This document shows positions 1,658-54,370 of a stretch of DNA of 64,000 nucleotides, piece by piece; the stretch's first letter is position 1, and each line of letters begins with the position of its first letter. Source of the DNA: a virus. The stretch is from IMG/VR virus record IMGVR_UViG_3300020213_000031, one strand, 5' to 3'. The notes under the pieces were generated by a model, which saw only the letters and a list, made by a program, of their open reading frames with translations, was not told the DNA's origin and made no database searches. The position numbers were made by a program, and so were the translations under genes.

Positions 1658-2668
1658 ATGGGTAAGGCACGAGAGCAGCAAAATCCTAACCTTGGCCCTT
1701 ATCGAATCGAGCTTAGAGATAACAAGGGACGTTTTACCCGACTTTATTCGAAGGCACGATTTTTCAGGGCGTATTTCCAAAATAAAGCTATATCAAAGCT
1801 CCTACGCTTCCCCGATGGTTGGCTCGTCAAACAAAAACGAGCTTCTGTCGAACTTACAACTTCTCGACACACTAAGCGTTATTTTAAAAAAGAAAAAGAA
1901 GCTAAAGATCGTCGTAAGGGAAGAAAAGCTGGAAGAAAGCCCGCTGTTCGTAAGCCCAGCGTTGAGGAAGAAGCACGAGAAACAGTTGCGGAGCTACCTC
2001 GAGAACGCCCGGAGAATGTCATCCAAACGGAAGACGACGACTTCTTCTGGTCCAGAGTTGAAGCTCTCCGCGACCGACTTGAAGACATTGAGCGAATCCC
2101 TGGACAAGCATCTAAACTCATTTTTCCAATGGAAGCGTCGAGCAGGGGTGTCGCAGCCCATCCCATGAAGCGGCTGGATAAGAAGACGAACAAGTGGGTT
2201 GTCGACAGGGGAAATGTTTTTAAGCGACTTCTGAGTGGCGGGGCGAAGAAGAGGAATCTTATATGGTGGGCAGCGAAGACCTTTTTACAAAAGCTAGGAA
2301 CAAAATACTTCGAGACGGTGGCGCGTCGTACTTCCAAAAGAACTTTATCTTTCCGGGTGTTTCTAACGACAAACCTTCCAAAGCACGAGGAAGTTCTGAT
2401 GGCTCCAGCGGGAGTTCACAGCATAATTTACGATCGAGCGGTAACAAACAAAAAGCTAATGCTCGAAAGAATGACGAGCCAGTTGGTGGCAGGCATTATG
2501 CGCTCTCTCTACAAGGGCGAGGCTTATCCAGAACTGTCGCTAACGAGTTCAGGCGCATTCTTTCAGGTGATACCAGAGTCCGCGAAGTCGATTGGGAAAA
2601 GCTCGACAAAGACCCAGAACTTCAAGCTAGCCTTTACGATTTTCTTGGAAGAGGAATTCTCAAGATAA
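1658..2668 (+). CDS. basic (K/R-rich) hypothetical protein immediately upstream of and overlapping polB; terminal-protein candidate
   Basis: Positional analogy to TP genes upstream of protein-primed polB; overlaps alternative frame 1359-2168 and polB start; boundaries uncertain. Confidence 0.3.
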   Translation: MGKAREQQNPNLGPYRIELRDNKGRFTRLYSKARFFRAYFQNKAISKLLRFPDGWLVKQKRASVELTTSRHTKRYFKKEKEAKDRRKGRKAGRKPAVRKPSVEEEARETVAELPRERPENVIQTEDDDFFWSRVEALRDRLEDIERIPGQASKLIFPMEASSRGVAAHPMKRLDKKTNKWVVDRGNVFKRLLSGGAKKRNLIWWAAKTFLQKLGTKYFETVARRTSKRTLSFRVFLTTNLPKHEEVLMAPAGVHSIIYDRAVTNKKLMLERMTSQLVAGIMRSLYKGEAYPELSLTSSGAFFQVIPESAKSIGKSSTKTQNFKLAFTIFLEEEFSR

Positions 2669-4644
2669 CGAATATCCCCAAGATTCCCTGCCAATATGAG
2701 CCATCAGATAAATTGTATTTAGGCTTAGACACAGAGGACAACTCTAACGGGATTCCACACTTTTACCAGATTGCAACGAGAGATTGCGTTTATATCTGTT
2801 CAAGCTTTCGCGCTCTCTTCAGATACGTCATTCAAGAGTACAAACTCAATTATCGCAATCACGTTGTCTTTGGCACTAACATTGAGTACGAGCTTGGAAA
2901 TATTCTTAAAGACTTTGATGCAAGCCCGGAGACAATGGACATCAAATGGCGCAGGGGCAGGCTAACCAAGTTTGCTTTATCTTACGATCCAGAATTGGCT
3001 TATTGGGGCCGTGACGACGACCGCAAGGGTAAGATGGTTTTTTGGGATACGATGAACCATTGGCCTATGAGCGTCACCAAGATGGGTGAATCGCTAAAAG
3101 AGCATCTTGGCACCGATCTTACAAAACTAGATCGAGATTTCTATGGTTTCAAGTACGCCGCGATGGACGCGATCATTTCTAGGTCTTACGCCTGCATCCA
3201 GCGAGCATATTACGAGAAGAAGGGTATCAAGCTAAAGGCGACGCCAGGATCGACAGCTCTCTGCGTATACGATCAAGGGGTCGGCAAGACGAAGTTCCGC
3301 TCGGAGCGGATCAGGCAAACCCACACACCTGAAGACATTGAATGGATCATGGAGGGGTTACGAGGCGGCAGGACGGAAGTTTTCTCCACGCGAAAGCATT
3401 ACGGGAACGTTGAGTATCTGGACATCAACAGCGCCTATCCATTTTCGATGAAGCATGGAGTGTTCCCAAACCTCATGCAGCACTTCTGGATAGAAGGAGA
3501 TAAAGAAATCAGGGAGTGCATCGACGCCGATTACGAGGGGATGGTTGAATGTGACGTTGAGGCGATAAACCTTCACCCGTTCACGATGATTTACCCGTAT
3601 CTCGGATACAAGGACAACGATACGCAAAGATTCTTTTTCCCTCTCGGAAAATGGAAATCTAAATACACTTTCTTTGAAATCAGAAATGCGGAGAAGCTCG
3701 GATACAAGTTCAAGTTCAGAAAAGCGATCGTCTATGAAAGATGCAAGAAGCATCCATTCCAGAAGTACGTTGATTTTTGCTACGCGATCAGGATGGAGGG
3801 GGACGCAACGAAAAACAAACTCCTTAAAGACGTGGGCAAGTCTTTGGGAAATAATTTGTATGGTAAGTGGGGAGAGCGACAGATTTTCTCCACTCTGGTC
3901 GACCCAGGAAAGTATAATGCCGACGATTTAATCTCATGCGCCAGAATTGGAACAGGCGTTGTGATGGAAGAGGACGAGGGTTACGCCTCTCACACGAACG
4001 GGATTTGGGGTGCCTACATCACAGCAATTTGTCGTGACCTTCTTTATCAGCACATGGTTAGCGCGTGGAATGAAGGCAACGTGATTCTTTACGTCGACAC
4101 TGACGGAATCTTTATCACTGGCGGGAAATTGCCAAAGAATGATCCCGTCAAGCTTGGCGCCTTGAAGCATGAAGGCACTCTTTACTATTTCAGAGCGTAC
4201 TTGCCGAAGCAGTATGAGTATCAATATTTGGATGAGGCTACAGGCTTTGGACGCGTAAATCCAAAAACTGGAAAAACAGAAACAGTTTACAAAGCTAAAG
4301 GTATTCCAGAATTTTACGATATTGTGAATGAGAAAGGTGAAGCCATTCTCGATGCGAACGGGGTTCCAAAGAAGGGGAATTTACGGGAGAAGTTTTTCGC
4401 TACAGGGGAAGCGGACTTTAGGAAGCCGTTGAAGGTTCGGGAAGCGATACGTCGCAAGAAATTCAAAGACCCCAACATCAATCCTGGAATCGACGCGATC
4501 AACGCATGGATTTCTGTAAAGAAAGAGTTGCGCGGGCACCTTACAAAGAGGACGGTGCTCAAGAACGGCTGGACGCTGCCGCTTTGGATTTCAATGAAGC
4601 AGCCTGATTGGTACAGTCCCCCAGAAATGTTCTGTAAGGATTGA
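2263..4644 (+). CDS. family B DNA polymerase with 3'-5' exonuclease, protein-primed (phi29/PRD1-like) type
   Basis: Exo I YLGLDTEDN, Exo III YAAMD, motif A YLDINSAYPFSM (Dx2SLYP-like), motif B KSLGNNLYGKWG (Kx3NSxYG), motif C ILYVDTDGIFI (YxDTDS), KxY-like KQYEY. Confidence 0.85.
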   Translation: MVGSEDLFTKARNKILRDGGASYFQKNFIFPGVSNDKPSKARGSSDGSSGSSQHNLRSSGNKQKANARKNDEPVGGRHYALSLQGRGLSRTVANEFRRILSGDTRVREVDWEKLDKDPELQASLYDFLGRGILKITNIPKIPCQYEPSDKLYLGLDTEDNSNGIPHFYQIATRDCVYICSSFRALFRYVIQEYKLNYRNHVVFGTNIEYELGNILKDFDASPETMDIKWRRGRLTKFALSYDPELAYWGRDDDRKGKMVFWDTMNHWPMSVTKMGESLKEHLGTDLTKLDRDFYGFKYAAMDAIISRSYACIQRAYYEKKGIKLKATPGSTALCVYDQGVGKTKFRSERIRQTHTPEDIEWIMEGLRGGRTEVFSTRKHYGNVEYLDINSAYPFSMKHGVFPNLMQHFWIEGDKEIRECIDADYEGMVECDVEAINLHPFTMIYPYLGYKDNDTQRFFFPLGKWKSKYTFFEIRNAEKLGYKFKFRKAIVYERCKKHPFQKYVDFCYAIRMEGDATKNKLLKDVGKSLGNNLYGKWGERQIFSTLVDPGKYNADDLISCARIGTGVVMEEDEGYASHTNGIWGAYITAICRDLLYQHMVSAWNEGNVILYVDTDGIFITGGKLPKNDPVKLGALKHEGTLYYFRAYLPKQYEYQYLDEATGFGRVNPKTGKTETVYKAKGIPEFYDIVNEKGEAILDANGVPKKGNLREKFFATGEADFRKPLKVREAIRRKKFKDPNINPGIDAINAWISVKKELRGHLTKRTVLKNGWTLPLWISMKQPDWYSPPEMFCKD

Positions 4645-5614: not shown

Positions 5615-6031
5615 ATGAATATTGCTCTTACATCGATAGGTATTTGGCTCGTGTTCTTTTTTGGTTGGCAATTGCGTGAGGAGTCAGTCAAGAGAATGCT
5701 CACGTCGTGGGATTTGGGTTCTCCGATTTTCTTTCTTTCGTTCGGAATGTTTGCCGCGATGGAACATCCAAGTTTCAGGGAGAGGGATCATATTGGATTG
5801 ATGGTCCCCAGCCTTCGAGTGGTTGAGGATTGGCGAAAAAGTTTTGGTTTTCTTTGGGTGCGCGTTGGGGTGAGAGACATGGGCGAGGCAGACATGTACC
5901 TTTACTACGAAAGAATTCACGCGATGGTGGAGGCGAGATATGCAACGATGGGTGAAAATTCGCGGGAAAATGAGACCATCGATCGAGTATCTAAAGACCC
6001 TCAAGACTATCCCCCATGCGGACACGCTTGA
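5615..6031 (+). CDS. hypothetical membrane protein
   Basis: Two N-terminal hydrophobic helices. Confidence 0.35.
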   Translation: MNIALTSIGIWLVFFFGWQLREESVKRMLTSWDLGSPIFFLSFGMFAAMEHPSFRERDHIGLMVPSLRVVEDWRKSFGFLWVRVGVRDMGEADMYLYYERIHAMVEARYATMGENSRENETIDRVSKDPQDYPPCGHA

Positions 6032-25968: not shown

Positions 25969-26045
25969 GGCCCAGTAGCTCAGATGGTCAGAGCGGCTGT
26001 TTTCAACTCAGTGCGTCGCGGATTCGAATTCCGCCTGGGCCTCCA
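25969..26045 (+). tRNA. tRNA with anticodon UCA (opal/UGA-reading; tRNA-Sup or Trp/other-UCA), CCA encoded
   Basis: Perfect 7-bp acceptor GGCCCAG/CTGGGCC, D-arm GCTC-AGATGGTCA-GAGC, anticodon loop TTTCAAC (U33, A37), T-arm GCGGA-TTCGAAT-TCCGC, discriminator U, CCA. Confidence 0.8.
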
Positions 26046-26166
26046 TTTAACTCTGAGCGTCAATGCTCAGCAATTTTCTCAGTCACCACTTGCTTTTTCC
26101 TCAGTCGATGCCATCCTCTTTCTCAGAGAAGCATACAGCTTCTTTTTCAATAGGAAACCCTCCAAC

Positions 26167-27924
26167 ATGACGCAAAGACGCACCATTTCCGACGAACGCG
26201 ATGAAAAACGCTCCCTGGCGCATCTCCAGGCCACCCTGGACAGCGAAGAAGGCGAACTTGACGACCTGGATTACACCGAGGAAGAGGCTGAAGAGGCTCT
26301 AAAACCTGACCCCGTGGCGGTCAAAGCTGAACGCGGCATGGAAGAATTGTCTGTAGAGCAAATTATTGCCCGAGCAGAGTCCTCGGAAGAGTGGGATATC
26401 TTCGAAGACATCGGCGCCCACCTCGTTTCACGCGGCGATCAGGTCAAGTATTCGGTAAAACTGAACGGAGAACATCGGGCAACCATCCCTCATCCCTGTT
26501 CCTACGATTGGCTTCAGAAAAAATACGGTGGCGGCTCATACCACGTCACCCTTCGTTCCTACCTTTTTTCGAAAAAAGCAGGCGGCGGATACCTCAAATC
26601 GCAGTCCAAAATGGTCGCCAACCCAGCCGACGATGAAGCCGACGCCGACGCTCCACTTCCTACAACCCTCGCGGGCGTCATGCCAGCGCCAGAAAAGGCG
26701 GCCTCCCCCGTGGAAATGCTCTCCATCCTGCAATCGATGAACGAAAAAGCGCGTTCCGAGCAACGAGCTGAGATGGAACGCATTCGCGAGGAGAACCGGC
26801 TTCGAGAGGAGAGGCTTGAACGTGAAGCAAAGTCCAGAGAAGAACGTCTCGAGCGGGAAGCCAAGGAACGCGAATCGAAACGCGAGTCTGAAGGCTCTTC
26901 CACGATGATGATGCTCATGAAATTCATGGAGCAATCCAGCGTAGCCGCACGCGAAGCAGCCAATCGCCAGAATGAAATGCTGATCGCGCTCCTCACAAAG
27001 TCGCCGCCTCCAGAGCGAGAAGACAAAAAAACCGACAAACTCTTCGACATGCTTCTCGGTGTGATGCTCGACAAGAAAGCAAAAGGCGATTCTCTCGATC
27101 CGTTGGAACTTCAGAAGTTGCTCAGCGCCGCAGAGGATAAGGGGTATTCCCGAGCGAAAGAAATTCGTGAGCTTGCGCAAGAAGAAGCCGCACGCCTCTC
27201 CGCTCGTATGGGTGGTAAGGATGACGACGAGGATGACGAAGACGAAGAGCCAAAAGAGAAGTCGACGACCAAAATGCTTCTCGAAACCATCGCTCCGATG
27301 ATTTCGCAGTTTGCTCAAGGTGCGGCTCAGGCGCAAGCGCAGCCGCAGCCGGTTCGCAGAGCCTTGCCGCCTCAAATGCGTCGCCCGCTCCCCGCTCCCG
27401 GCCCGAATCCCAATATGCCAGCCAGACCCCCCGCCGCGCCCGCCGCTCCAGCCAGACTGCAAGCGGCGCCCGCTGGTGAGCATCCTGTAAAGGCTGCAAC
27501 TAATCCAGTGCAGCCCCAAAGACAAAGCCTCAACCAAGTAATGAACCAATCAAAACCGCAAGCGGTGAAAGCGACTATGAAGCCGACGAAGAAAGAAATT
27601 GTCTCCGAGACTGTAGTAAACAAGATCACGGCAGACCTGACTGCCAATTTCCTGACCGGAGGATACGATCCGGAGAAAACAGCGGACGCCGCGCTTGCGA
27701 GCTTGGCCGACTACAAGTTTGACGATGGAGCGAAAATTGACGCTGCTTGGCTTCTGACCAACTTCACGCTGGATGAAATGAAAGCTGTAGCCAAGGCCAA
27801 AGGAATGCCGGAAGCCATCAATGCCTACCTGGAGCGCTTCTACGAGCGCGTAAAGTACATTGAAGGCGCTCAAAAGATCCTTGAGGGTGGATCGCAGCCT
27901 GCCAGCACGCCAGATTCCGTCTAG
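26167..27924 (+). CDS. acidic, coiled-coil, Pro/Ala-rich virion-module protein (scaffold/internal-protein candidate)
   Basis: First gene of late module; REERLEREAK repeats, D/E-rich and PA-rich low-complexity segments. Confidence 0.45.
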   Translation: MTQRRTISDERDEKRSLAHLQATLDSEEGELDDLDYTEEEAEEALKPDPVAVKAERGMEELSVEQIIARAESSEEWDIFEDIGAHLVSRGDQVKYSVKLNGEHRATIPHPCSYDWLQKKYGGGSYHVTLRSYLFSKKAGGGYLKSQSKMVANPADDEADADAPLPTTLAGVMPAPEKAASPVEMLSILQSMNEKARSEQRAEMERIREENRLREERLEREAKSREERLEREAKERESKRESEGSSTMMMLMKFMEQSSVAAREAANRQNEMLIALLTKSPPPEREDKKTDKLFDMLLGVMLDKKAKGDSLDPLELQKLLSAAEDKGYSRAKEIRELAQEEAARLSARMGGKDDDEDDEDEEPKEKSTTKMLLETIAPMISQFAQGAAQAQAQPQPVRRALPPQMRRPLPAPGPNPNMPARPPAAPAAPARLQAAPAGEHPVKAATNPVQPQRQSLNQVMNQSKPQAVKATMKPTKKEIVSETVVNKITADLTANFLTGGYDPEKTADAALASLADYKFDDGAKIDAAWLLTNFTLDEMKAVAKAKGMPEAINAYLERFYERVKYIEGAQKILEGGSQPASTPDSV

Positions 27925-40098: not shown

Positions 40099-41337
40099 AT
40101 GGCGTCAGCAGCAGTAAATACACAGCGGCTTTTGGAGACTTTCCACGGTATTCAGGGCGGACGCTACGACCCTTCCGTTCAAAGCACTCAGGGTAGCGCT
40201 GGCACGATTTTTATTCAGTTGCCGCCCTTTGGTCTAAGCACTCCGTTTGCCTTGTGGCAAAAACAAGACAATGGAAACACAACCAATTGGGCTGAGATTT
40301 CCGCCAGCTCGACGGGAATTACTGATTACAAAGCGCCAGTAAACCTTGCATCCACGGCAGACGTTCCGCTCTCTGGTGGCGCCGCTCTGTTGATTGATGG
40401 TGTAGCCGTAGCCAACGGCAATCGCATCTTGCTCAAAGACCAAGCCACTGCAAGCCAAAACGGAATTTACATCGCCAGCGGAATCGGCACGGCTTATCTC
40501 TTGACTCGCGCTCCTGACGCAAATACTTCGGCTGAAGTTACACAAGGTATGTTTACCTGGGTGATGTTCGGCTCCACGAACCTCGAGACCGGCTGGATTT
40601 TGACCACGCCGAACCCGATCACGCTTGGCACGACTGCGTTGACGTTTGTGGAGATTCCGATTCCTGGTCTAACATCTGTTGGAGCATTCGACACACAGCC
40701 GCCTTCGGTTGATGGTGCCGTAATTGTTGGTAGCAGTATTTTCTTTCAATCCATGAATGGCGGCGCAAGCCCTGTGGGGATGCTGAATTCTGGTTCACAA
40801 AACCTTGTCGGCGATAAGAGCTTCTCTCAGCCTATCCAGTTTTTCAACCAGGGCGTAACACCACCATCTCCCGCAGGTGGCACGGCGGAAATTTATTCCA
40901 ACGTTTCCGAATTGATGGAGCAACAAGACTCCGCAGGAAATATTCGCATCGTAAACGGTATCGTCCAAGACACAGCCGTGGACATCGTTACGGCTCCAGC
41001 ATTCATCAACTTCATTGGCGCAAACTCTGTTGTAGCGAACGGTCTTGGCGTCGATGTCGACGTGACGGCTGCGGTTGGAGCAACTTGGGATCGCGAAACG
41101 TTCGTTATCGCGGCGCCCGACATTGTAAACGGCTACCTCGATCTCGCCAACACAGCAATCGATGATTCCGTAAATCCGACTCCCCAAGGTTCCGGCCCCC
41201 TCATCGGCGGCTCGATCGCGGCGGGTGACGACTTTGAAATGTCGATCGTCGGCCCAATTACTCGTGTGACCTTCTCTCCAGCCGTAGTGGCTGCCTGGGT
41301 TGTTGGTCAAAGAGTTCAAGTTCAGTACCAGTTTTAA
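40099..41337 (+). CDS. fiber/receptor-binding-like virion protein
   Basis: Ser/Thr/Gly/Ala/Asn-rich beta composition; position in fiber block. Confidence 0.4.
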   Translation: MASAAVNTQRLLETFHGIQGGRYDPSVQSTQGSAGTIFIQLPPFGLSTPFALWQKQDNGNTTNWAEISASSTGITDYKAPVNLASTADVPLSGGAALLIDGVAVANGNRILLKDQATASQNGIYIASGIGTAYLLTRAPDANTSAEVTQGMFTWVMFGSTNLETGWILTTPNPITLGTTALTFVEIPIPGLTSVGAFDTQPPSVDGAVIVGSSIFFQSMNGGASPVGMLNSGSQNLVGDKSFSQPIQFFNQGVTPPSPAGGTAEIYSNVSELMEQQDSAGNIRIVNGIVQDTAVDIVTAPAFINFIGANSVVANGLGVDVDVTAAVGATWDRETFVIAAPDIVNGYLDLANTAIDDSVNPTPQGSGPLIGGSIAAGDDFEMSIVGPITRVTFSPAVVAAWVVGQRVQVQYQF

Positions 41338-41350
41338 ATAGAGGTAATTT

Positions 41351-44300
41351 ATGAGTGACGGAAAAATTCTTCAGCGGTATCAGCCCTACGCTCCTGCCAC
41401 TCCGACCAATTACCCTGGCACGACTCCTGTAAACAATCAGGAAGCTCTCGACTCGGCTGTGGCGATGCTCAATCTCGCAAACGCTCAAATTTACGTTGAT
41501 GCGGCTGCTGGATCAGATGTAACCGGAACAGGTGCGCAGCTTCGTCCGTTTCAAACGATTGAAGCGGCTCTTGCCGACGCTGTAGCTAAGCCGGTCGGCA
41601 ATTATACCTTGATGCTTGCCACTGGCAACTATGGAGTCGGGCCTATAGCTTGGCCTGTAAGCGCAGGAAAAAATATCTCCGTAGAAGGTGTCGGTTTGAA
41701 CTCAGGAATTTCCGCGCCGATAACTTATACCGCTATCGGTGGCGTAGATGAGGAAAACGTAATTTTCTTCAACTTGGGAATCAACGACTTTACGGCTGAT
41801 CTTACCGCCGCCGCAGGAAAATCGGCTGCGATCACATTTGGAAATTGTGGTGTTACCATCACTCGTGCAGACACTCTCGGCATTGGAGCACAAGTCGTTA
41901 GATTGTTTAACTGCCTCCTGACGGGAGTGGATACTTCTAGCACGATGCTTCTAACAGGATGCCAATACATTGGTGGATCGATCACCGTTCGAACGGTGAA
42001 TGGTAAACTTCTCACTTCTTCCACTCTGGTTGCTGGCTGTCCTGCTTTTACTGTAGAGGCTGGAGCTTTCGCTGGGCTGTTTGCATCTTCAACCGCATAC
42101 GCAAACCTCATTGTTGATGGAACTCTTCGCATCATGGGATGCGATACCGAAAATACTTTTACCATCTCTGGCCTCGGCACCCTCGATATCGACGCTGCCT
42201 CTTTGAAACTCGCCCCAGTGCCAACCACGGCAACCGTTACGTTGTTGGATGATGCTCAATATGTTGAGTTTAATCCAACCGCACCCGGTTCATGGCCGGT
42301 GGGAACAGATCAAGTCGCAGAAGCCCTCGATTATCTCGTTGGTCTCGGCAACGGCGACATGAAGCGCAACTCCTTCGTGTTTCAGCCTGGAGGCGTTTCG
42401 AGTGGAAATACTTTCGCTACTTGGGCGGAAGTAATTGCAGCTATCGCTGTTGATGCTGGTCCCAAAACGATTTATTTTGATGACTCCATTGTTTCTCCGG
42501 CAGTCATCCCTGCTGGGGTTTATGCGCTCGAAGAAGTTACATTCGATAATGCTAAAGAAGGACAAGACACTTTCGTAGAAGTCGCAATTGGTGTTAGCTG
42601 GACAGGGTTGTTTGCTATAAACAATATTCAGGTCAACTTCCTCAATACCGCCGTTGTTGAATCTATCTCTGGCCGACTGCTCCAGTTCAACGGAAGCACG
42701 ATTACTGCAAACGGCACTTCACCCATTTGGGATATTGTTGGTTTCGCTCTTATCCAATCTCGCTTTGGCTCAGGCATCAACGGTAGCGCCACCGCCGCTG
42801 CTATAAGCATCGCTGCTGGTCAGACCCTACTTTATTTGATGGTCAACTTCAGCAATGTGAACGCCACAGCAATTATCGGTGGAGTGACTGAAAGTCTCAC
42901 CCTAGTCTATGGTGACTCTTCTCCGCAATTTACTGCACAATCGGGTTTCACCGGAACTCTCACCACTCAGCTTCTCACGCAAGCTCAGTTTGAAGGCTAT
43001 ACTCCGACAACTCCAGGCGATTGGAGTCCAGCGCCTTCCGATGTTGGTGGCGCTCTCGATCAATTGGCTGCAAACGCTTCTGCTGTAGTGCCTACAGTAT
43101 TCGTGTTTCAAGATGGTGGTGTTGCAAGCAAGAACGTCTACGATACCTGGGCCGCCCTCTATGCGGTGCTCTCGACCGTAGCTGGCCCGAAGATTGTCGA
43201 AATCGACGATTCCGTTACAAGTCCTTGCGTGATTCCTGCGGGAACCTACGACGTGGCAGATGTGACTTTCGTATCCAAGAATTATACGTTCTCGGCTACG
43301 CCAATTTTGCATCTTGCCGACCTCTGCGTTCTCGACAATCTCACCCACATCTCGGGCGGATTGTTTGTTGAATCGCAGTCGACCGCTCCTGTTGCAGTAT
43401 TCACGGCTGGCGTCCACAAGATCACCATCGACGGACAAGCTAGCCTGCGTGGTATTCTTGCTGGCGTGCCCGTAATCGATGTAAGTGGGACTGCAATCCT
43501 CGGAATGTCAATTTCCAACAACAGCGCACTCGGCTTGAAGTCGATCACCACAAGCGGTACAGGCCAAGTGCAATTGCTCATGTGGAACACAGCTCAAGTT
43601 GTTACCGATGCCGTTGAAGGCAACGGAGCTATCAGCGTGTCCTATGATGCTGGATCGAATTATTCCACGACACAAACTAATTTCACCGGAGCATTTGGCT
43701 CAGCGTTCTTCGATAATGCCCCTCAAGTTGGATATTCGCCTTCGGCGGCTGGAAACTGGCTCGTATCTCCGACTCAAGTGAAGGCTGCTTTGGACGAGCT
43801 TTCCCATCGAGAACCTTCTACGTTTGTTTACCAAGAAGGTGGCACTACAGGTAAAAATGTGTTCGCCACCTGGGCCGAAGTAATGGCGGCGATTTCAGCA
43901 GCCGGTGAAGGGCCGAAAACGATTCTAGTAGACTCCACTTTCACAAGTCCTTGCGTTGTTCCTGCTGGCTCTTACAGTCTGATTCAAGTGACGTTCAAGG
44001 CTCGCGACAATGGAAGCGTCCTTGAGTTTGCTGACAATGCTACTATTTCAACAAATTTTGTTGGTGTAGAAGGTGGATTGACTTTACGCTCGGTATCCAC
44101 CGTGGCGGTAATGGAAGTTTCAGGGTTTGAGACAATCTTTGTCGATAAGATTTCTGAGATTTCCTCAACCATCTTCCCGTTCTTCCATGTGAACGGCGGC
44201 GGCCCAACGCTAAACCTTATCGTTTCCGAAAACTCTTCGTTGTCCAACGCTGGCGCGGCAGTAGTAGACGTAGACGCAACTGGTGTAGCGAATATTTACA

Positions 44301-44614
44301 GCTACACAGGCTCTACGATTGCTAACGGAACATATTCTGGAGCAGGCACTATTACTGTCGTCAGAGATGCTTCACCGAGCAGAATTCCCGGCACGATATC
44401 TGGCGCTCAAGCAACAGCGAAACAGATTGATTTAGGGGTTCTCGTAAATCAAGCTACCGTGATCTTCACTATTCAAGGTTTGAGCGGTTTGACTTATAGC
44501 TTTGATTACACCTTGACCGATGGGGCGACCAGCACCGTGATTGATTGGACCGGCTTAGGGCTTGACGGTGTTATTCTCGGTGGCGAGAACTATAATATTC
44601 AATACAGAGCATAA
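41351..44614 (+). CDS. large (1087 aa) spike/fiber protein with three internal about-240-aa repeats (beta-helix-like)
   Basis: Repeats PGxW..P..V..ALD.L...FV(F/Y)Q.GG....N.(F/Y).TWA......GPK.I..D.S..SP.V(I/V)PAG.Y at about 42240, 42990, 43690. Confidence 0.55.
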   Translation: MSDGKILQRYQPYAPATPTNYPGTTPVNNQEALDSAVAMLNLANAQIYVDAAAGSDVTGTGAQLRPFQTIEAALADAVAKPVGNYTLMLATGNYGVGPIAWPVSAGKNISVEGVGLNSGISAPITYTAIGGVDEENVIFFNLGINDFTADLTAAAGKSAAITFGNCGVTITRADTLGIGAQVVRLFNCLLTGVDTSSTMLLTGCQYIGGSITVRTVNGKLLTSSTLVAGCPAFTVEAGAFAGLFASSTAYANLIVDGTLRIMGCDTENTFTISGLGTLDIDAASLKLAPVPTTATVTLLDDAQYVEFNPTAPGSWPVGTDQVAEALDYLVGLGNGDMKRNSFVFQPGGVSSGNTFATWAEVIAAIAVDAGPKTIYFDDSIVSPAVIPAGVYALEEVTFDNAKEGQDTFVEVAIGVSWTGLFAINNIQVNFLNTAVVESISGRLLQFNGSTITANGTSPIWDIVGFALIQSRFGSGINGSATAAAISIAAGQTLLYLMVNFSNVNATAIIGGVTESLTLVYGDSSPQFTAQSGFTGTLTTQLLTQAQFEGYTPTTPGDWSPAPSDVGGALDQLAANASAVVPTVFVFQDGGVASKNVYDTWAALYAVLSTVAGPKIVEIDDSVTSPCVIPAGTYDVADVTFVSKNYTFSATPILHLADLCVLDNLTHISGGLFVESQSTAPVAVFTAGVHKITIDGQASLRGILAGVPVIDVSGTAILGMSISNNSALGLKSITTSGTGQVQLLMWNTAQVVTDAVEGNGAISVSYDAGSNYSTTQTNFTGAFGSAFFDNAPQVGYSPSAAGNWLVSPTQVKAALDELSHREPSTFVYQEGGTTGKNVFATWAEVMAAISAAGEGPKTILVDSTFTSPCVVPAGSYSLIQVTFKARDNGSVLEFADNATISTNFVGVEGGLTLRSVSTVAVMEVSGFETIFVDKISEISSTIFPFFHVNGGGPTLNLIVSENSSLSNAGAAVVDVDATGVANIYSYTGSTIANGTYSGAGTITVVRDASPSRIPGTISGAQATAKQIDLGVLVNQATVIFTIQGLSGLTYSFDYTLTDGATSTVIDWTGLGLDGVILGGENYNIQYRA

Positions 44615-50968: not shown

Positions 50969-51769
50969 CTATTCGCTCACTACGGCTGCGTTGACGGTCT
51001 TGCCATCAGTGATGATCGTCTTAGGGAGCGGTCCTTCTTGCCCGTCGATCCGACCCGTAAGGAAACGACTTTCATTCACGCCCGGACGAGCGTGCTGGAG
51101 CAGCGTCATCGTCATTTCGTGCAGGTTCTTGGTGTGGACGGAGCCATTCTGGTTCATCTCGGCCATGGCTTTCGTCATGCGATCGTAATGCTGCTGAGCC
51201 TCTTGTTGCTTCACCTGAGAGATGGCTTCAGCGTTGCGCTTCTCGAGGTCGGCAACGGCTTTAACTTTTTCGTTCTCTACAGCGGCCACACGCTTGTCGG
51301 CTTCGAGCTGAATTTTGGCGACCTTTTGTTCGGATTCGAGTTTTGCCAAGGTCGTTACCTTGTCGACCTCTAGCTTGGTCGTCTCTTCGAGCATCTTTTT
51401 ATTGCGATCGAATTCGTCTTTGAGGTTGGATTCCTTGATTTTGAAATCGTTCTGCTGAGTCAGGATGCGGCGAGAAAAATCGGCTTCCTGATCTTTGAGC
51501 TTTTGCGTAAATTCCGCCTCACGCTGTTTGAGCGTGATATCAAAATCAGACTCTTTATTCTTGAGCGTCAGCCCTTGTGTTTCGATCAACGCCCTCATCC
51601 TCAGACGTTCTTTCATAAAAAACAGCATCGTTTTCTCCTCTTTCGGTTTTGAGAGCTTTGGCGGCTCTCGTTTAATCCTGTAATCGCTAAGGTCGTCAAA
51701 AATGTTCGCCCAAAGTCGCCTAATCACCATTAGCATTTTCGCGATAAGATGCAAGAGAAAATCGATCAT
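50969..51769 (-). CDS. coiled-coil hypothetical protein
   Basis: Long heptad-rich K/E sequence; start may be internal. Confidence 0.35.
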   Translation of the reverse strand: MIDFLLHLIAKMLMVIRRLWANIFDDLSDYRIKREPPKLSKPKEEKTMLFFMKERLRMRALIETQGLTLKNKESDFDITLKQREAEFTQKLKDQEADFSRRILTQQNDFKIKESNLKDEFDRNKKMLEETTKLEVDKVTTLAKLESEQKVAKIQLEADKRVAAVENEKVKAVADLEKRNAEAISQVKQQEAQQHYDRMTKAMAEMNQNGSVHTKNLHEMTMTLLQHARPGVNESRFLTGRIDGQEGPLPKTIITDGKTVNAAVVSE

Positions 51770-51794
51770 TTTTCGTTCTCCAAGCGCGTCATAG

Positions 51795-52975
51795 TTGACC
51801 TCCTCCCCATGCCTAAAGGCAGGGGATTCCCTTAAGCGACGTTAGCCGCTCTTAGCGTATCAAGTCCGATACGGAGGATATTTTTTGCGGCGTTAACATC
51901 TCTGTCGTGTTGACAGGAACACTCGCTGCAAATCCATCCTCTAATTCCAAGACCACTTGGTCCGCTCGGTCCAGTCTTTTTAAGACAAGAAGAGCAAGTG
52001 ATCGTAGAAGCAAACTCTGATACATCAACAACCAACCCCTGGTGCCTTATGGCTTTTTGCTTCAGGATCTGGCGGAACATTCCGGTAGATGCATCTTGTG
52101 AACTTTTACCATGCGACGCTTGCAGGAACTTCCCGCTTACGTCGCCAACAAATATTGTTTTATACTTTCTGGCTAACTCCAAAGTTTTCTTGTGCAGAAA
52201 GTCTTTGCGGATATTTTTAATCTTTGCAGACAGCTTTTGCGCCTGTCTTTTCTTTCGGTGTCTCTGAAAACCGGCCAGCTTATTCTCATGCTTTAAAAAG
52301 ATTCTAGGGTTTTCAACTTTGCTACCGTCGCTTAACACAGCGATATCTTTCAATCCTAAATCAACCCCAACAGCGTCGATTGCGTGGCTTGTTTCGATAG
52401 TGGGAGTTTCAGCGACTAAGTTAATATACCAGTGGCCCCGAGCATCTTGCGAGAAGGAGCCGCACTTGATCTTACCTGGCAGGTCCCGTGACTTCCAGAA
52501 CTTGAAAGCTTGCTTGGCGTAGGTAGCTTTATTGCCATCAATTTTTACACCGGTTGCTTTAAAGGGCACCCAGCCTAGAGACTTCTTTGACCCGCTAGAT
52601 GCCCGCCAGCGAAGTTTTCTCTTCTTAAATTGTATTCTGCGGGTTGCGTACTCTTCTCCAATCGCCTGAACTGTTTGCGAATGAAGCCCTATCTCTTTCC
52701 CGGCACCTGCGGTCAAGTAGTTGAGGTCAAAACCAGATAGGAAGTCCGAGTGATTTCTAATGGCGTTGAAGCTTGTTTCGTTGCAGAAATTCCACACAAA
52801 GTTAACCGATTTAGAAAGGGCAGAAAGCTTTCTACAAGAGAACCCTCCCTTAATTCGGTAGCGATATGTTAACATCATGGAAGCCTTGTAACGTACAATG
52901 TCGATAGAGTCAAGAAGGAAGTACGCCTTATATCCCCACGCCTAAAGGCGGGGGTTTTACGGCGGCGCTGATAAA
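51795..52975 (-). mobile_element. IS200/IS605-family element carrying only tnpB (IS1341-like); boundaries approximate
   Basis: Imperfect subterminal hairpins CCCCATGCC-TAAA-GGCAGGGG (51805-51825) and CCCCACGCC-TAAA-GGCGGGGG (52934-52954) flank tnpB. Confidence 0.6.
51832..52878 (-). CDS. tnpB: TnpB (IS605 OrfB) RuvC-like RNA-guided nuclease
   Basis: RuvC-I GVDLGLKDIAV, RuvC-II-like FVGDVS, zinc finger CSSC...CSECSC, RuvC-III HDRDVNAAKNI. Confidence 0.8.
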   Translation of the reverse strand: MMLTYRYRIKGGFSCRKLSALSKSVNFVWNFCNETSFNAIRNHSDFLSGFDLNYLTAGAGKEIGLHSQTVQAIGEEYATRRIQFKKRKLRWRASSGSKKSLGWVPFKATGVKIDGNKATYAKQAFKFWKSRDLPGKIKCGSFSQDARGHWYINLVAETPTIETSHAIDAVGVDLGLKDIAVLSDGSKVENPRIFLKHENKLAGFQRHRKKRQAQKLSAKIKNIRKDFLHKKTLELARKYKTIFVGDVSGKFLQASHGKSSQDASTGMFRQILKQKAIRHQGLVVDVSEFASTITCSSCLKKTGPSGPSGLGIRGWICSECSCQHDRDVNAAKNILRIGLDTLRAANVA

Positions 52976-53161
52976 GTAAGCGCCTGCGGTGGTGGCGACG
53001 ATCCATCCCCAGGTGCTCCACATGCTTATGTAGTCGCAGAAACAACTTGGCTCAGCCATTTATTTCCAGCTCCCACCTTTTCCGCTCAAGCTCATCGCGC
53101 ATCTGTCTTCGCCGCCCAACGCCAATAAAGTGAAGAGCCTTAGAATCGCATCGATCTTGGA

Positions 53162-53458
53162 TCATAAAATATTCCAATCCTCACGAGAGGAGAAGTCTTC
53201 ATGCGTCCTGATTTTAATGGCTAGAGTCTCTATCGCAGGAACAAACAAGGCTTGATTTTCCTGCGCCCTAGAGAACCATCGCATCACGCGAACGTACACA
53301 GACAACTTCTCGTGATGCCCAAAACGCTTGATTTTTCGAATGGCGGCGTCATGCCACTCATCCGATCCAACGGGGAACGTAATCTTGGCAATCTCTTTGG
53401 CTGTATCGAAATAGTTGGAACAGCATTCCTCGGGACTACGTTTGATGTCGAGTTTCAC
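53162..53458 (-). CDS. hypothetical protein
   Basis: ORF only. Confidence 0.35.
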   Translation of the reverse strand: MKLDIKRSPEECCSNYFDTAKEIAKITFPVGSDEWHDAAIRKIKRFGHHEKLSVYVRVMRWFSRAQENQALFVPAIETLAIKIRTHEDFSSREDWNIL

Positions 53459-53924: not shown

Positions 53925-54370
53925 AATGGTGTACCCGGCGAGAATCGAACTCGCGTCCTAAAGTTTTTTCATTCTACAGTCGACATGTTTTTGCGCCCAA
54001 GGCGACACCGAAGTGTCGGGTGGAGATTAAAATCTAGGGGTCTTTCAACCCCCAGACCAGGGCGACCGATTTCTCGGCCACCTCCACCAACCAGATTCTT
54101 ACGATAAGCTCTGGCAAGCTCCCTGCACTTTCCTTCTTGCGAAGTGGACTGCACTACCATTTTTGCCTTTCTTCTTTAACTGGCGCTCAGGCGGCACCAC
54201 AGTCTTCCGTTTTTAGGCGGCGAACTGAAGAGCCGTAGCATTGCTGCCACGGTTCTTGCGAATCACGAAAGATTCAGCATTTACATTTGCGTCCAGATGA
54301 TAACTCAACAAGTACGCCTCTGAGACATGCAGTAGAATTTCCAAACTCCAGTCGAAACCAATTCGGGCAC
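53925..54370 (-). ncRNA. ssrA: tmRNA (ssrA)
   Basis: 5' GUGCCCGAAUUGGUUUCGACUGG and 3' GGACGCGAGUUCGAUUCUCGCCGGGUACACCA match the tmRNA tRNA-like domain; acceptor GUGCCCG/CGGGUAC pairs; internal ORF ending ...ALQFAA-stop. Confidence 0.85.

Follow-up and report, generated by a model that had tools for sequence, protein, structure and literature searches.

The stretch analysed here, called the window throughout, comprises 64,000 nt of the virus record IMGVR_UViG_3300020213_000031 and is part of JGI contig Ga0163150_10000575 (67,878 bp). On its minus strand, between a small open reading frame (ORF) and a gene for a protein of 266 amino acids (aa), positions 51795-52970 are a tnpB-only (IS1341-like), non-autonomous element of the IS200/IS605 family of insertion sequences (IS), 1,176 bp long and recently inserted. 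The tnpB gene lies between a left end (LE) and a right end (RE), and its 3' part continues with the RE into the predicted scaffold of an omega-RNA (Table 1). The element has no terminal inverted repeats and carries subterminal palindromes at both ends, as is usual for IS200/IS605. The motif CCCCAYGCCTAAAGGCRGGGG, which describes these palindromes, has just two occurrences in the 64 kb (51805-51825 and 52934-52954) and gave no matches in 100 shuffled sequences with three mismatches permitted. The RE hairpin core (51805-51825), with 8 bp and a bulged T, is near-identical to the LE hairpin. A Y1 TnpA was not found in the element or in the 64-kb window by tblastn with the TnpA of a sister element as query (best E 1.8).

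The ends of the element are held in common with its relatives. In ∼65 of these the RE has the layout ...GGAAT-hairpin-AGGAYGTCAA, beyond which the flanks diverge; the GTCAA is near-invariant at the right end and the base that follows may be any of the four. The RE hairpin begins 30 nt before the right end, a position that is fixed across the family, and the spacing of the LE hairpin and the first C of the element are likewise conserved family-wide.

A metagenome collection was searched for contigs in which the flanks GCTTACTTTATC and TATGACGCGCTTGG abut, with 0-3 nt between them. One contig was returned, L098, from a microbial-mat assembly. It consists of window positions 54688-52970 (99.94% identical) joined directly to 51794-50978 (100%), with one shared C, and its empty site reads ...GGCGCTTACTTTATCTATGACGCGCTTGGAGAACGAAAAATG.... 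At the junction, ...ACTTTAT|CTATGACG..., there is no target duplication, in agreement with the behaviour of IS200/IS605 elements. The family RE end resolves the 1-nt ambiguity of the junction, so the right end is A51795 and the left end C52970. Because the flanks are 99.9-100% identical to L098, the insertion is recent. An earlier annotation of the window (the original prediction) had described a tnpB-only IS605-family element with no tnpA and near-identical palindromes on both sides, and had proposed that an uninterrupted locus would reveal its TAM (transposon-adjacent motif) and target; all of this was borne out. Its limits, 51795-52975, proved right for the element itself up to 52970, and the remainder is the 5-nt TAM.

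This motif, TTTAT in the sense of tnpB, is also the insertion target. By the ISDra2-type rule, the guide was taken from the DNA that adjoins the right end on its 3' side. The resulting 20-mer is unique in the window and matches L098 at 20/20 positions directly after TTTAT. In the genome with the insertion (IS+), the guide-matching DNA follows ...GGTCAA, which is not the TAM; in the insertion-free (IS−) genome, L098, it follows TTTAT. Since TAM and target adjoin only in the IS− genome, the predicted TnpB guide is aimed at the empty allele of its own carrier.

In the family, the TAM was TYAT at 20 of 22 independent insertions and TYAC at the other two, the five bases being mostly TTCAT or TTTAT. 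Position 3 of the TAM covaries at 22/22 sites with the base lying 4 nt before the foot of the LE hairpin (15 sites combine C with G, and 7 combine T with A), and L019 and L035, the two elements with a C as the last base of the TAM, have G at position −2. These groups of sites represent only few independent lineages, and the covariation is to be read as support, not proof. It suggests that in this family the target pairs with an internal segment of the LE. This fits the rule for IS608, where TnpA reportedly reads the cleavage site through such pairing (Barabas et al. 2008).

The tnpB ORF is open for 348 codons without internal stops. Its product matches the NCBIfam model NF040570 (guided_TnpB; RNA-guided endonuclease TnpB family) with 185.8 bits against a cutoff of 100, the Pfam domains PF07282 (Cas12f1-like_TNB; E 6e-17, 61.9 bits, cutoff 26.3) and PF01385 (OrfB_IS605; E 2e-11, 44.5 bits, cutoff 30.5), and PHROG 506, labelled 'transposase' (E 6.5e-66). 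The closest natural protein of solved structure is the ISDra2 TnpB (8EXA/8H1J; phmmer E 1.4e-19), an AI-designed nuclease having scored higher. In comparisons with two sister genes the proportion of nonsynonymous differences (pN) was 0.18-0.20 and that of synonymous differences (pS) was saturated at 0.80-0.83, and between the two sisters the ratio of the corresponding rates (dN/dS) was 0.076. Judged by these values, tnpB is under strong purifying selection, and it is free of lesions.

Conservation of individual residues was assessed in an alignment of 121 sequences, the window TnpB and 120 homologues of 50-93% identity. D173, Gly245 and Glu288 are invariant (121/121), D327 is present in 120/121 with one gap, and the zinc-finger cysteines C295, C298, C317 and C320 are kept in 120-121 of the sequences. 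Gly245 aligns with the catalytic E278 of ISDra2 TnpB, and the canonical D-E-D arrangement, with its Glu in RuvC-II on beta-4, is absent. The residue following Gly245 is Asp in 84 sequences and Asn in 36, and because it varies in this way it is not the catalytic acid. Glu288 lies 43 residues past Gly245 in a V-S/N-E motif just ahead of the first CxxC. In an AlphaFold2 model (predicted local distance difference test, pLDDT, 86.6; predicted template-modelling score, pTM, 0.74), G245 is in beta4 (239-246) and E288 closes beta5 (282-287). The best Foldseek matches were ISDra2 TnpB (E 1e-21, TM 0.67), ISFba1 TnpB and the mimivirus Fanzor2. The original prediction had reported a D/E/D triad together with a CxxC...CxxC finger; the finger was found as described, while the triad was not, a glycine occupying the RuvC-II position.

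As judged from the alignment and the model, the putative catalytic Glu is relocated to position 288 and the protein is of the TnpB2, or RuvC-II-rearranged (RIIr), type. TnpB2 proteins have Gly or Pro where the RuvC-II Glu would stand, and ∼45 residues away they conserve an alternative Glu (Jiang et al. 2023, PMC10530073). The RIIr clades, of which RIIr-5 is the largest, have Gly in place of Glu, the substitute Glu being on beta-5 and not on beta-4 (Altae-Tran et al. 2023, PMC10691335). A TnpB2 from Thermoplasma volcanium, TvTnpB, cleaves DNA and does so without collateral activity (Jiang et al. 2023, PMC10530073). By analogy, the TnpB element of the window is probably an active selfish element.

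For the RNA analysis, 67 family elements were aligned over their terminal 150 nt, up to the right end. With this alignment RNAalifold gave 26 consensus pairs in six helices, 18 of them with compensatory changes. Paired cells amounted to 97.2%, against 80.3% in shuffled alignments, and changes on both sides of a pair were seen in 289 cells against 84, a value reached by none of 500 shuffles. When the partners were slid by 1-3 columns, the both-side changes fell to 12-38 cells. The long-range helix P1 has five pairs in the family consensus, four with compensatory changes; in hairpin P2 six of seven pairs have them and 99.8% of cells are paired; and in P4, which is the RE hairpin, six of seven pairs covary. 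The inner stem of P3 is common only to the nearest sisters (L014 and L100), and its three outer pairs covary. After P4 the tail of the RNA is AGGAGGUCAA. The window sequence folds into the same P1-P4 arrangement, with a minimum free energy of −63.6 kcal/mol (z = −4.1). Since P1-P3 are coding and have no known role in recognition by TnpA, their covariation argues for an RNA.

A covariance model was then built from the 65 more distant members, leaving out the window and its two sisters. It gave one full-length match in the window, at 51795-51958(−) (107.8 bits, E ∼2e-27), and no match in the empty-site contig L098. The original prediction had placed an omega-RNA in 51795-52000, and this interval agrees with the structured region, which covers 51795-51958 and may reach ∼52026. 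In a longer alignment, 52026-52022 pairs with the RE tail; the four pairs concerned are near-invariant, and the 5' partner encodes the EVSE motif, so that coding constraint confounds them. A 5' extension of the omega-RNA to ∼52026 may exist, as a pairing that lacks covariation. The predicted omega-RNA is a structured one that overlaps the 3' end of tnpB and the RE and passes into the flank-derived guide. Among Rfam families, none for omega-RNA reached its threshold on the window. HgcC (RF00062) aligned over its full length at 51782-51924(−) with 17.8 bits (E 0.46), well below its gathering cutoff of 50. Archaeal RNAs of the HgcC/sotRNA type overlap the 3' ends of IS1341-type tnpB genes, and the HgcC match over the omega-RNA may reflect distant homology.

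Table 1. Features of the element and of its immediate surroundings (window coordinates)
Feature	Coordinates	Strand	Remarks
TAM / insertion target 5'-TTTAT-3' (tnpB sense)	52971-52975	−	directly 5' of the LE; from the L098 junction
Left end (LE)	52879-52970	−	C52970 first, 15 nt, hairpin, 55 nt to the tnpB ATG; edge set by the empty site
LE subterminal imperfect palindrome	52934-52954	−	CCCCCGCC-TTTA-GGCG(T)GGGG; 8 bp, bulged T
tnpB, 348 aa	51832-52878	−	D173 (RuvC-I), Gly245, Glu288, C295/C298/C317/C320, D327 (RuvC-III, HDRDVN)
Omega-RNA scaffold, predicted (minimum extent, ∼165 nt)	51795-51958	−	last 127 nt of tnpB including the stop codon, plus 37-nt RE tail
Long-range helix P1, predicted	51874-51941	−	GAGGAUG (51941-51935) with UAUCCUC (51880-51874)
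Hairpin P2, predicted	51856-51873	−	CGUAUC-GGACUU-GAUACG; within the coding sequence
Hairpin P3, predicted	51830-51855	−	crosses the stop codon; inner stem GCGGC-UAAC-GUCGC
RE subterminal imperfect palindrome = omega-RNA hairpin P4	51804-51826	−	(U)CCCCUGCC-UUUA-GGCA(U)GGGG(A)
RE terminal tail GGAGGUCAA	51795-51803	−	last element base 51795, after ...GTCAA
Predicted guide/target CTATGACGCGCTTGGAGAAC	51775-51794	−	flanking phage DNA; holds the ribosome-binding site of the downstream gene
Downstream phage gene, 266 aa	50969-51769	−	coiled-coil, unknown function; ATG 25 nt past the right end
Upstream small ORF cut by the insertion	52928-53059	−	now 43 aa, ends inside the LE hairpin

Many members of the family are tnpB-only copies of 1.16-1.3 kb. 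One of the two sisters (L014 / P0003, 70%) bears a divergent Y1 tnpA (PF01797). The other is present in L100-L102 (∼4888-6092 in L100), on a different phage-like contig. It is tnpB-only, with ∼70% nucleotide and 72% amino acid identity to the window element, has the TAM TTTAT, a homologous LE (88.9% over 54 nt), a different right flank and the guide CTGAGCCAGGAATGGA, and is accompanied by a D12 methyltransferase gene and by Laminin_G_3 tail-like genes. The window TnpB subfamily thus recurs in phages. TnpB scans of IMG/VR and GTDB gave relatives of 41-52% only, which served the comparison of the family and not that of the insertion site. The cluster mates of a 93% homologue, P0001, are from the same phage (L099) or are the window itself.

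The carrier contig is phage-like by its gene content, with a genome of ∼68 kb. PHROG matches mark a DNA polymerase at 2263-4644 and tail or tail-fibre proteins at 40099-44614, and public gene calls on the contig include GP88 and DUF5661, both phage families. At least three runs yielded assemblies of the IS+ allele, namely 3300020195, 3300015360 (L096) and SRR6448213 (L099, 99.93% identical), and cluster records list a further contig of 67,993 bp with the same proteins. When the element and 24 kb of the window were compared by BLAST with 50,697 GenBank phage records, no nucleotide match was returned, and the two flanking proteins had no relatives in IMG/VR. The first base of L096 lies 15 nt ahead of the tnpB ATG, and L099 stops (position 5942) inside the RE hairpin, so that these two independent assemblies both break within element ends. 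Such breaks are what the assembly graph would show if IS+ and IS− genomes were mixed or further copies of the IS were present.

The insertion lies on the 5' side of the 266-aa gene. In L098 the small ORF that starts at 53059 continues in frame into this gene (MAEPSCFCDYISMWSTWGWIVATTAGAYFIYDALGERK-MIDFLL...), giving an open frame of ∼304 aa. A distant homologue of the 266-aa protein lacks the N-terminal extension, and the gene's GGAG ribosome-binding site remains on the flank. A homologue with 57% amino acid identity is carried by L097, the nearest other phage with this gene, which was considered as an empty site and ruled out by its different upstream genes. At 3888-4514, just upstream of the equivalent site, L097 encodes a ∼204-aa, fragment-sized homologue of class II His-tRNA synthetase (PF13393/PF00587).

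Two further RNA genes were seen in the window. A full-length tmRNA gene lies at 53927-54370(−), ∼1 kb upstream of the element (RF00023, 67.2 bits, gathering cutoff 47, model positions 1-374). At 444 nt, against a 374-position model, it contains large insertions; it was not called by ARAGORN, and its tag frame appears to end ...ANVNAESFVIRKNRGSNATALQFAA* (ORF 54213-54344). A 77-nt tRNA with anticodon UCA is found at 25969-26045(+) (Rfam 60.5 bits), overlapping the 5' end of ORF 25984-27924. ARAGORN labels it SeC, and its length fits an ordinary opal-suppressor type. Recoding of TGA was considered on account of this tRNA and rejected, TGA being the commonest stop of the long ORFs (37/86).

A scan of 51600-53300, which includes the LE, detected no sigma-70-type promoter and no intrinsic terminator, and a promoter picked by eye in the LE (TTGACT-N17-TACAAG) was dropped. 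As tnpB is co-oriented with all neighbouring genes and no promoter or terminator was detected, the simplest expectation is that tnpB, the omega-RNA and the downstream genes are transcribed by read-through.

The reading that we favour, and consider quite likely as a whole, is that of a recently inserted tnpB-only RIIr element whose TnpB, with a cognate omega-RNA, would cut copies of the empty site. Expression, cleavage and homing are proposed by analogy with known systems, as follows. The tnpB/omega-RNA transcript would probably be made by read-through from the co-oriented phage operon, and its processing, as in ISDra2 and related elements, would give an omega-RNA whose last ∼16-20 nt derive from the adjacent phage DNA. 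The complex of TnpB and omega-RNA would recognize TTTAT-CTATGACGCGCTTGGA, which is present only where the element is absent. It would cut empty-site phage genomes, and recombination with an IS-bearing copy would restore or spread the element. Transposition to a new site would need a Y1 TnpA in trans, presumably from a host-borne full-length relative. When TnpA is present, cutting of the empty site is the classical mechanism of retention. Because this element is without TnpA, the only substrates would be IS-free phage genomes in the same cell. Co-infected phages have been named as possible targets of 'transposon non-restorative homing', and TnpA-independent spread of an IS605 element has been described within a plasmid population (2026 OMEGA review). 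Homing between co-infecting phages is plausible. The homing or anti-competitor device that the original prediction had put forward is better grounded now, because IS+ and IS− alleles of the phage both exist.

Several points weigh against this reading. The IS− evidence is the single 2.5-kb contig L098, with a coverage of 2.85 by its name and from a different assembly than the IS+ genome. The canonical RuvC-II Glu is absent, and the argument for activity draws on Fanzors and on a single tested TnpB2, an archaeal one. The RNA alignment is mostly coding as well, and protein constraint accounts for some of its conservation, but not for the compensatory pairs; the RE hairpin also doubles as a DNA signal for TnpA. 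The promoter scan was empty.

The possibility that the phage has co-opted the element extends the favoured reading and does not exclude it. TnpB would then kill or convert IS-free relatives during co-infection, favouring the flanking alleles, and the TnpA-less element would act as an RNA-guided gene drive or interference weapon that cuts TTTAT-CTATGACGCGCTTGGAG of IS-free siblings such as L098. We regard this as possible, with the balance against it. Both alleles of the phage exist with flanks 99.9-100% identical, the IS− allele has a perfect TAM and 20-nt target, and the IS+ allele is known from several runs and the 67,993-bp contig. With TnpA absent, retention after excision is not the local selective reason; the plasmid case provides a precedent, and related TnpBs recur on phage-like contigs. 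On the other side, the two alleles come from different assemblies, the element may be carried along neutrally or at a slight cost to the phage, and the empty allele fits an ancestral site as well as a product of TnpA-mediated excision.

That tnpB is instead an inert relic, decaying and nuclease-dead since the canonical RuvC-II Glu is gone, appears improbable. The Gly at the ISDra2 E278 position, the lack of tnpA and the lack of a detected promoter would suit a relic. However, Gly245 and Glu288 are invariant in 121/121 sequences and so characterize the clade instead of marking a lesion, TvTnpB and Fanzors are catalytically active with this arrangement, and the ORF is of full length with pN far below pS. 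None of the omega-RNA helices is disrupted, and by its flanks the insertion is very recent. Still less credible, at a few chances in a hundred, is an exapted, TldR-like RNA-guided transcriptional regulator that represses a phage or host gene. The protein is short and phage-borne, and the guide overlaps the 5' untranslated region and ribosome-binding site of the downstream gene, but D173, E288, D327 and the zinc finger are kept, as are both transposon ends, LE and RE, in intact form, and the phage occurs with and without the insertion. Moreover, the resident match to the guide, the only one in the window, follows ...GGTCAA instead of the TAM and is therefore not a target. Finally, the two hairpins are GC-rich stem-loops in intergenic positions and could be taken for phage terminators or generic repeats with no link to a transposon. 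This has next to no probability, since the empty site and the comparison with the family refute it: no T-tract follows the hairpins and the scan saw no terminator-like site, they stand at a fixed distance from conserved ends in dozens of relatives in unrelated genomes, and both vanish together with tnpB in L098.

The element is an ordinary one and nothing in it lies outside known biology; tnpB-only IS605 derivatives are among the commonest prokaryotic genes, and earlier work had already noted TnpBs on viral contigs. What it offers is a base-precise IS+/IS− pair of phages in which TAM, ends and guide are all defined. Such a pair is a test system for super-Mendelian inheritance of TnpB, or exclusion of competitors, among phages without TnpA. 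If the tentative co-option reading were true, a TnpB with a rearranged active site would be performing TnpA-independent 'non-restorative homing' among viruses in nature. The protein is also a compact (348 aa) bacterial TnpB2/RIIr with the TAM TTTAT and a ∼165-nt scaffold supported by covariation, and on these features a possible editor candidate.

Among known systems, ISDra2 of Deinococcus radiodurans (8EXA, 8H1J) has in common with the window element the domain order, the fold, the RuvC-I Asp, the zinc finger and the RuvC-III DRDxN motif, as well as an omega-RNA that overlaps the tnpB 3' end and the RE, a 5-nt T-rich TAM 5' of the LE and a guide from the RE flank. The ISDra2 TAM is TTGAT, against TTTAT here. 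The window TnpB differs in its Gly and relocated Glu288, is ∼60 aa shorter and has no tnpA beside it, and its RE extends only 37 nt past the stop codon, so that the scaffold is nearly all coding. IS608 of Helicobacter pylori, the model case for the mechanism of IS200/IS605 ends, has subterminal imperfect palindromes with a bulged T, and its RE hairpin is separated from the terminal ...TCAA in such a way that 10 nt lie beyond the hairpin; the RE geometry and the bulged T in both hairpins of the window element agree with this. Insertion 3' of a short target without duplication and the covariation of a cleavage-site base with a base 5' of the LE hairpin are further likenesses, whereas the window element lacks TnpA and its family uses TTTAT/TTCAT rather than TTAC. 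The IS1341 group has tnpB alone between LE and RE and is mobilized in trans, and the window copy is merely located in a phage.

Phage homing endonucleases (Seg/Mob of T4, and the intron endonuclease of a jumbo phage; Birkholz 2024, as cited in PMC13565253) have the same expected outcome, in that the allele without the nuclease gene is cut in a co-infecting phage, which leads to conversion or exclusion. They rely on recognition by protein where TnpB would use an RNA guide and a TAM. TldR proteins (bioRxiv 10.1101/2023.11.30.569447) are exapted regulators of prophages, marked by lost RuvC catalytic residues, a truncated C-terminus and an immobile locus. They too are short TnpB homologues with a 3' guide RNA, but the window element keeps the catalytic residues, the zinc finger and the transposon ends, is of full length relative to its homologues and is polymorphic as an insertion. 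In its active site the protein resembles TnpB2/RIIr, with Gly at the canonical Glu position and the alternative Glu on beta-5 ∼45 residues downstream (43 here) in an IS605-type element. TvTnpB is archaeal and has the TAM NTGAC, in contrast to the bacterial, phage-borne TnpB of the window with its TTTAT. As a member of this type the window TnpB would be expected to cut on target, the tested examples having shown no collateral activity (PMC10530073).

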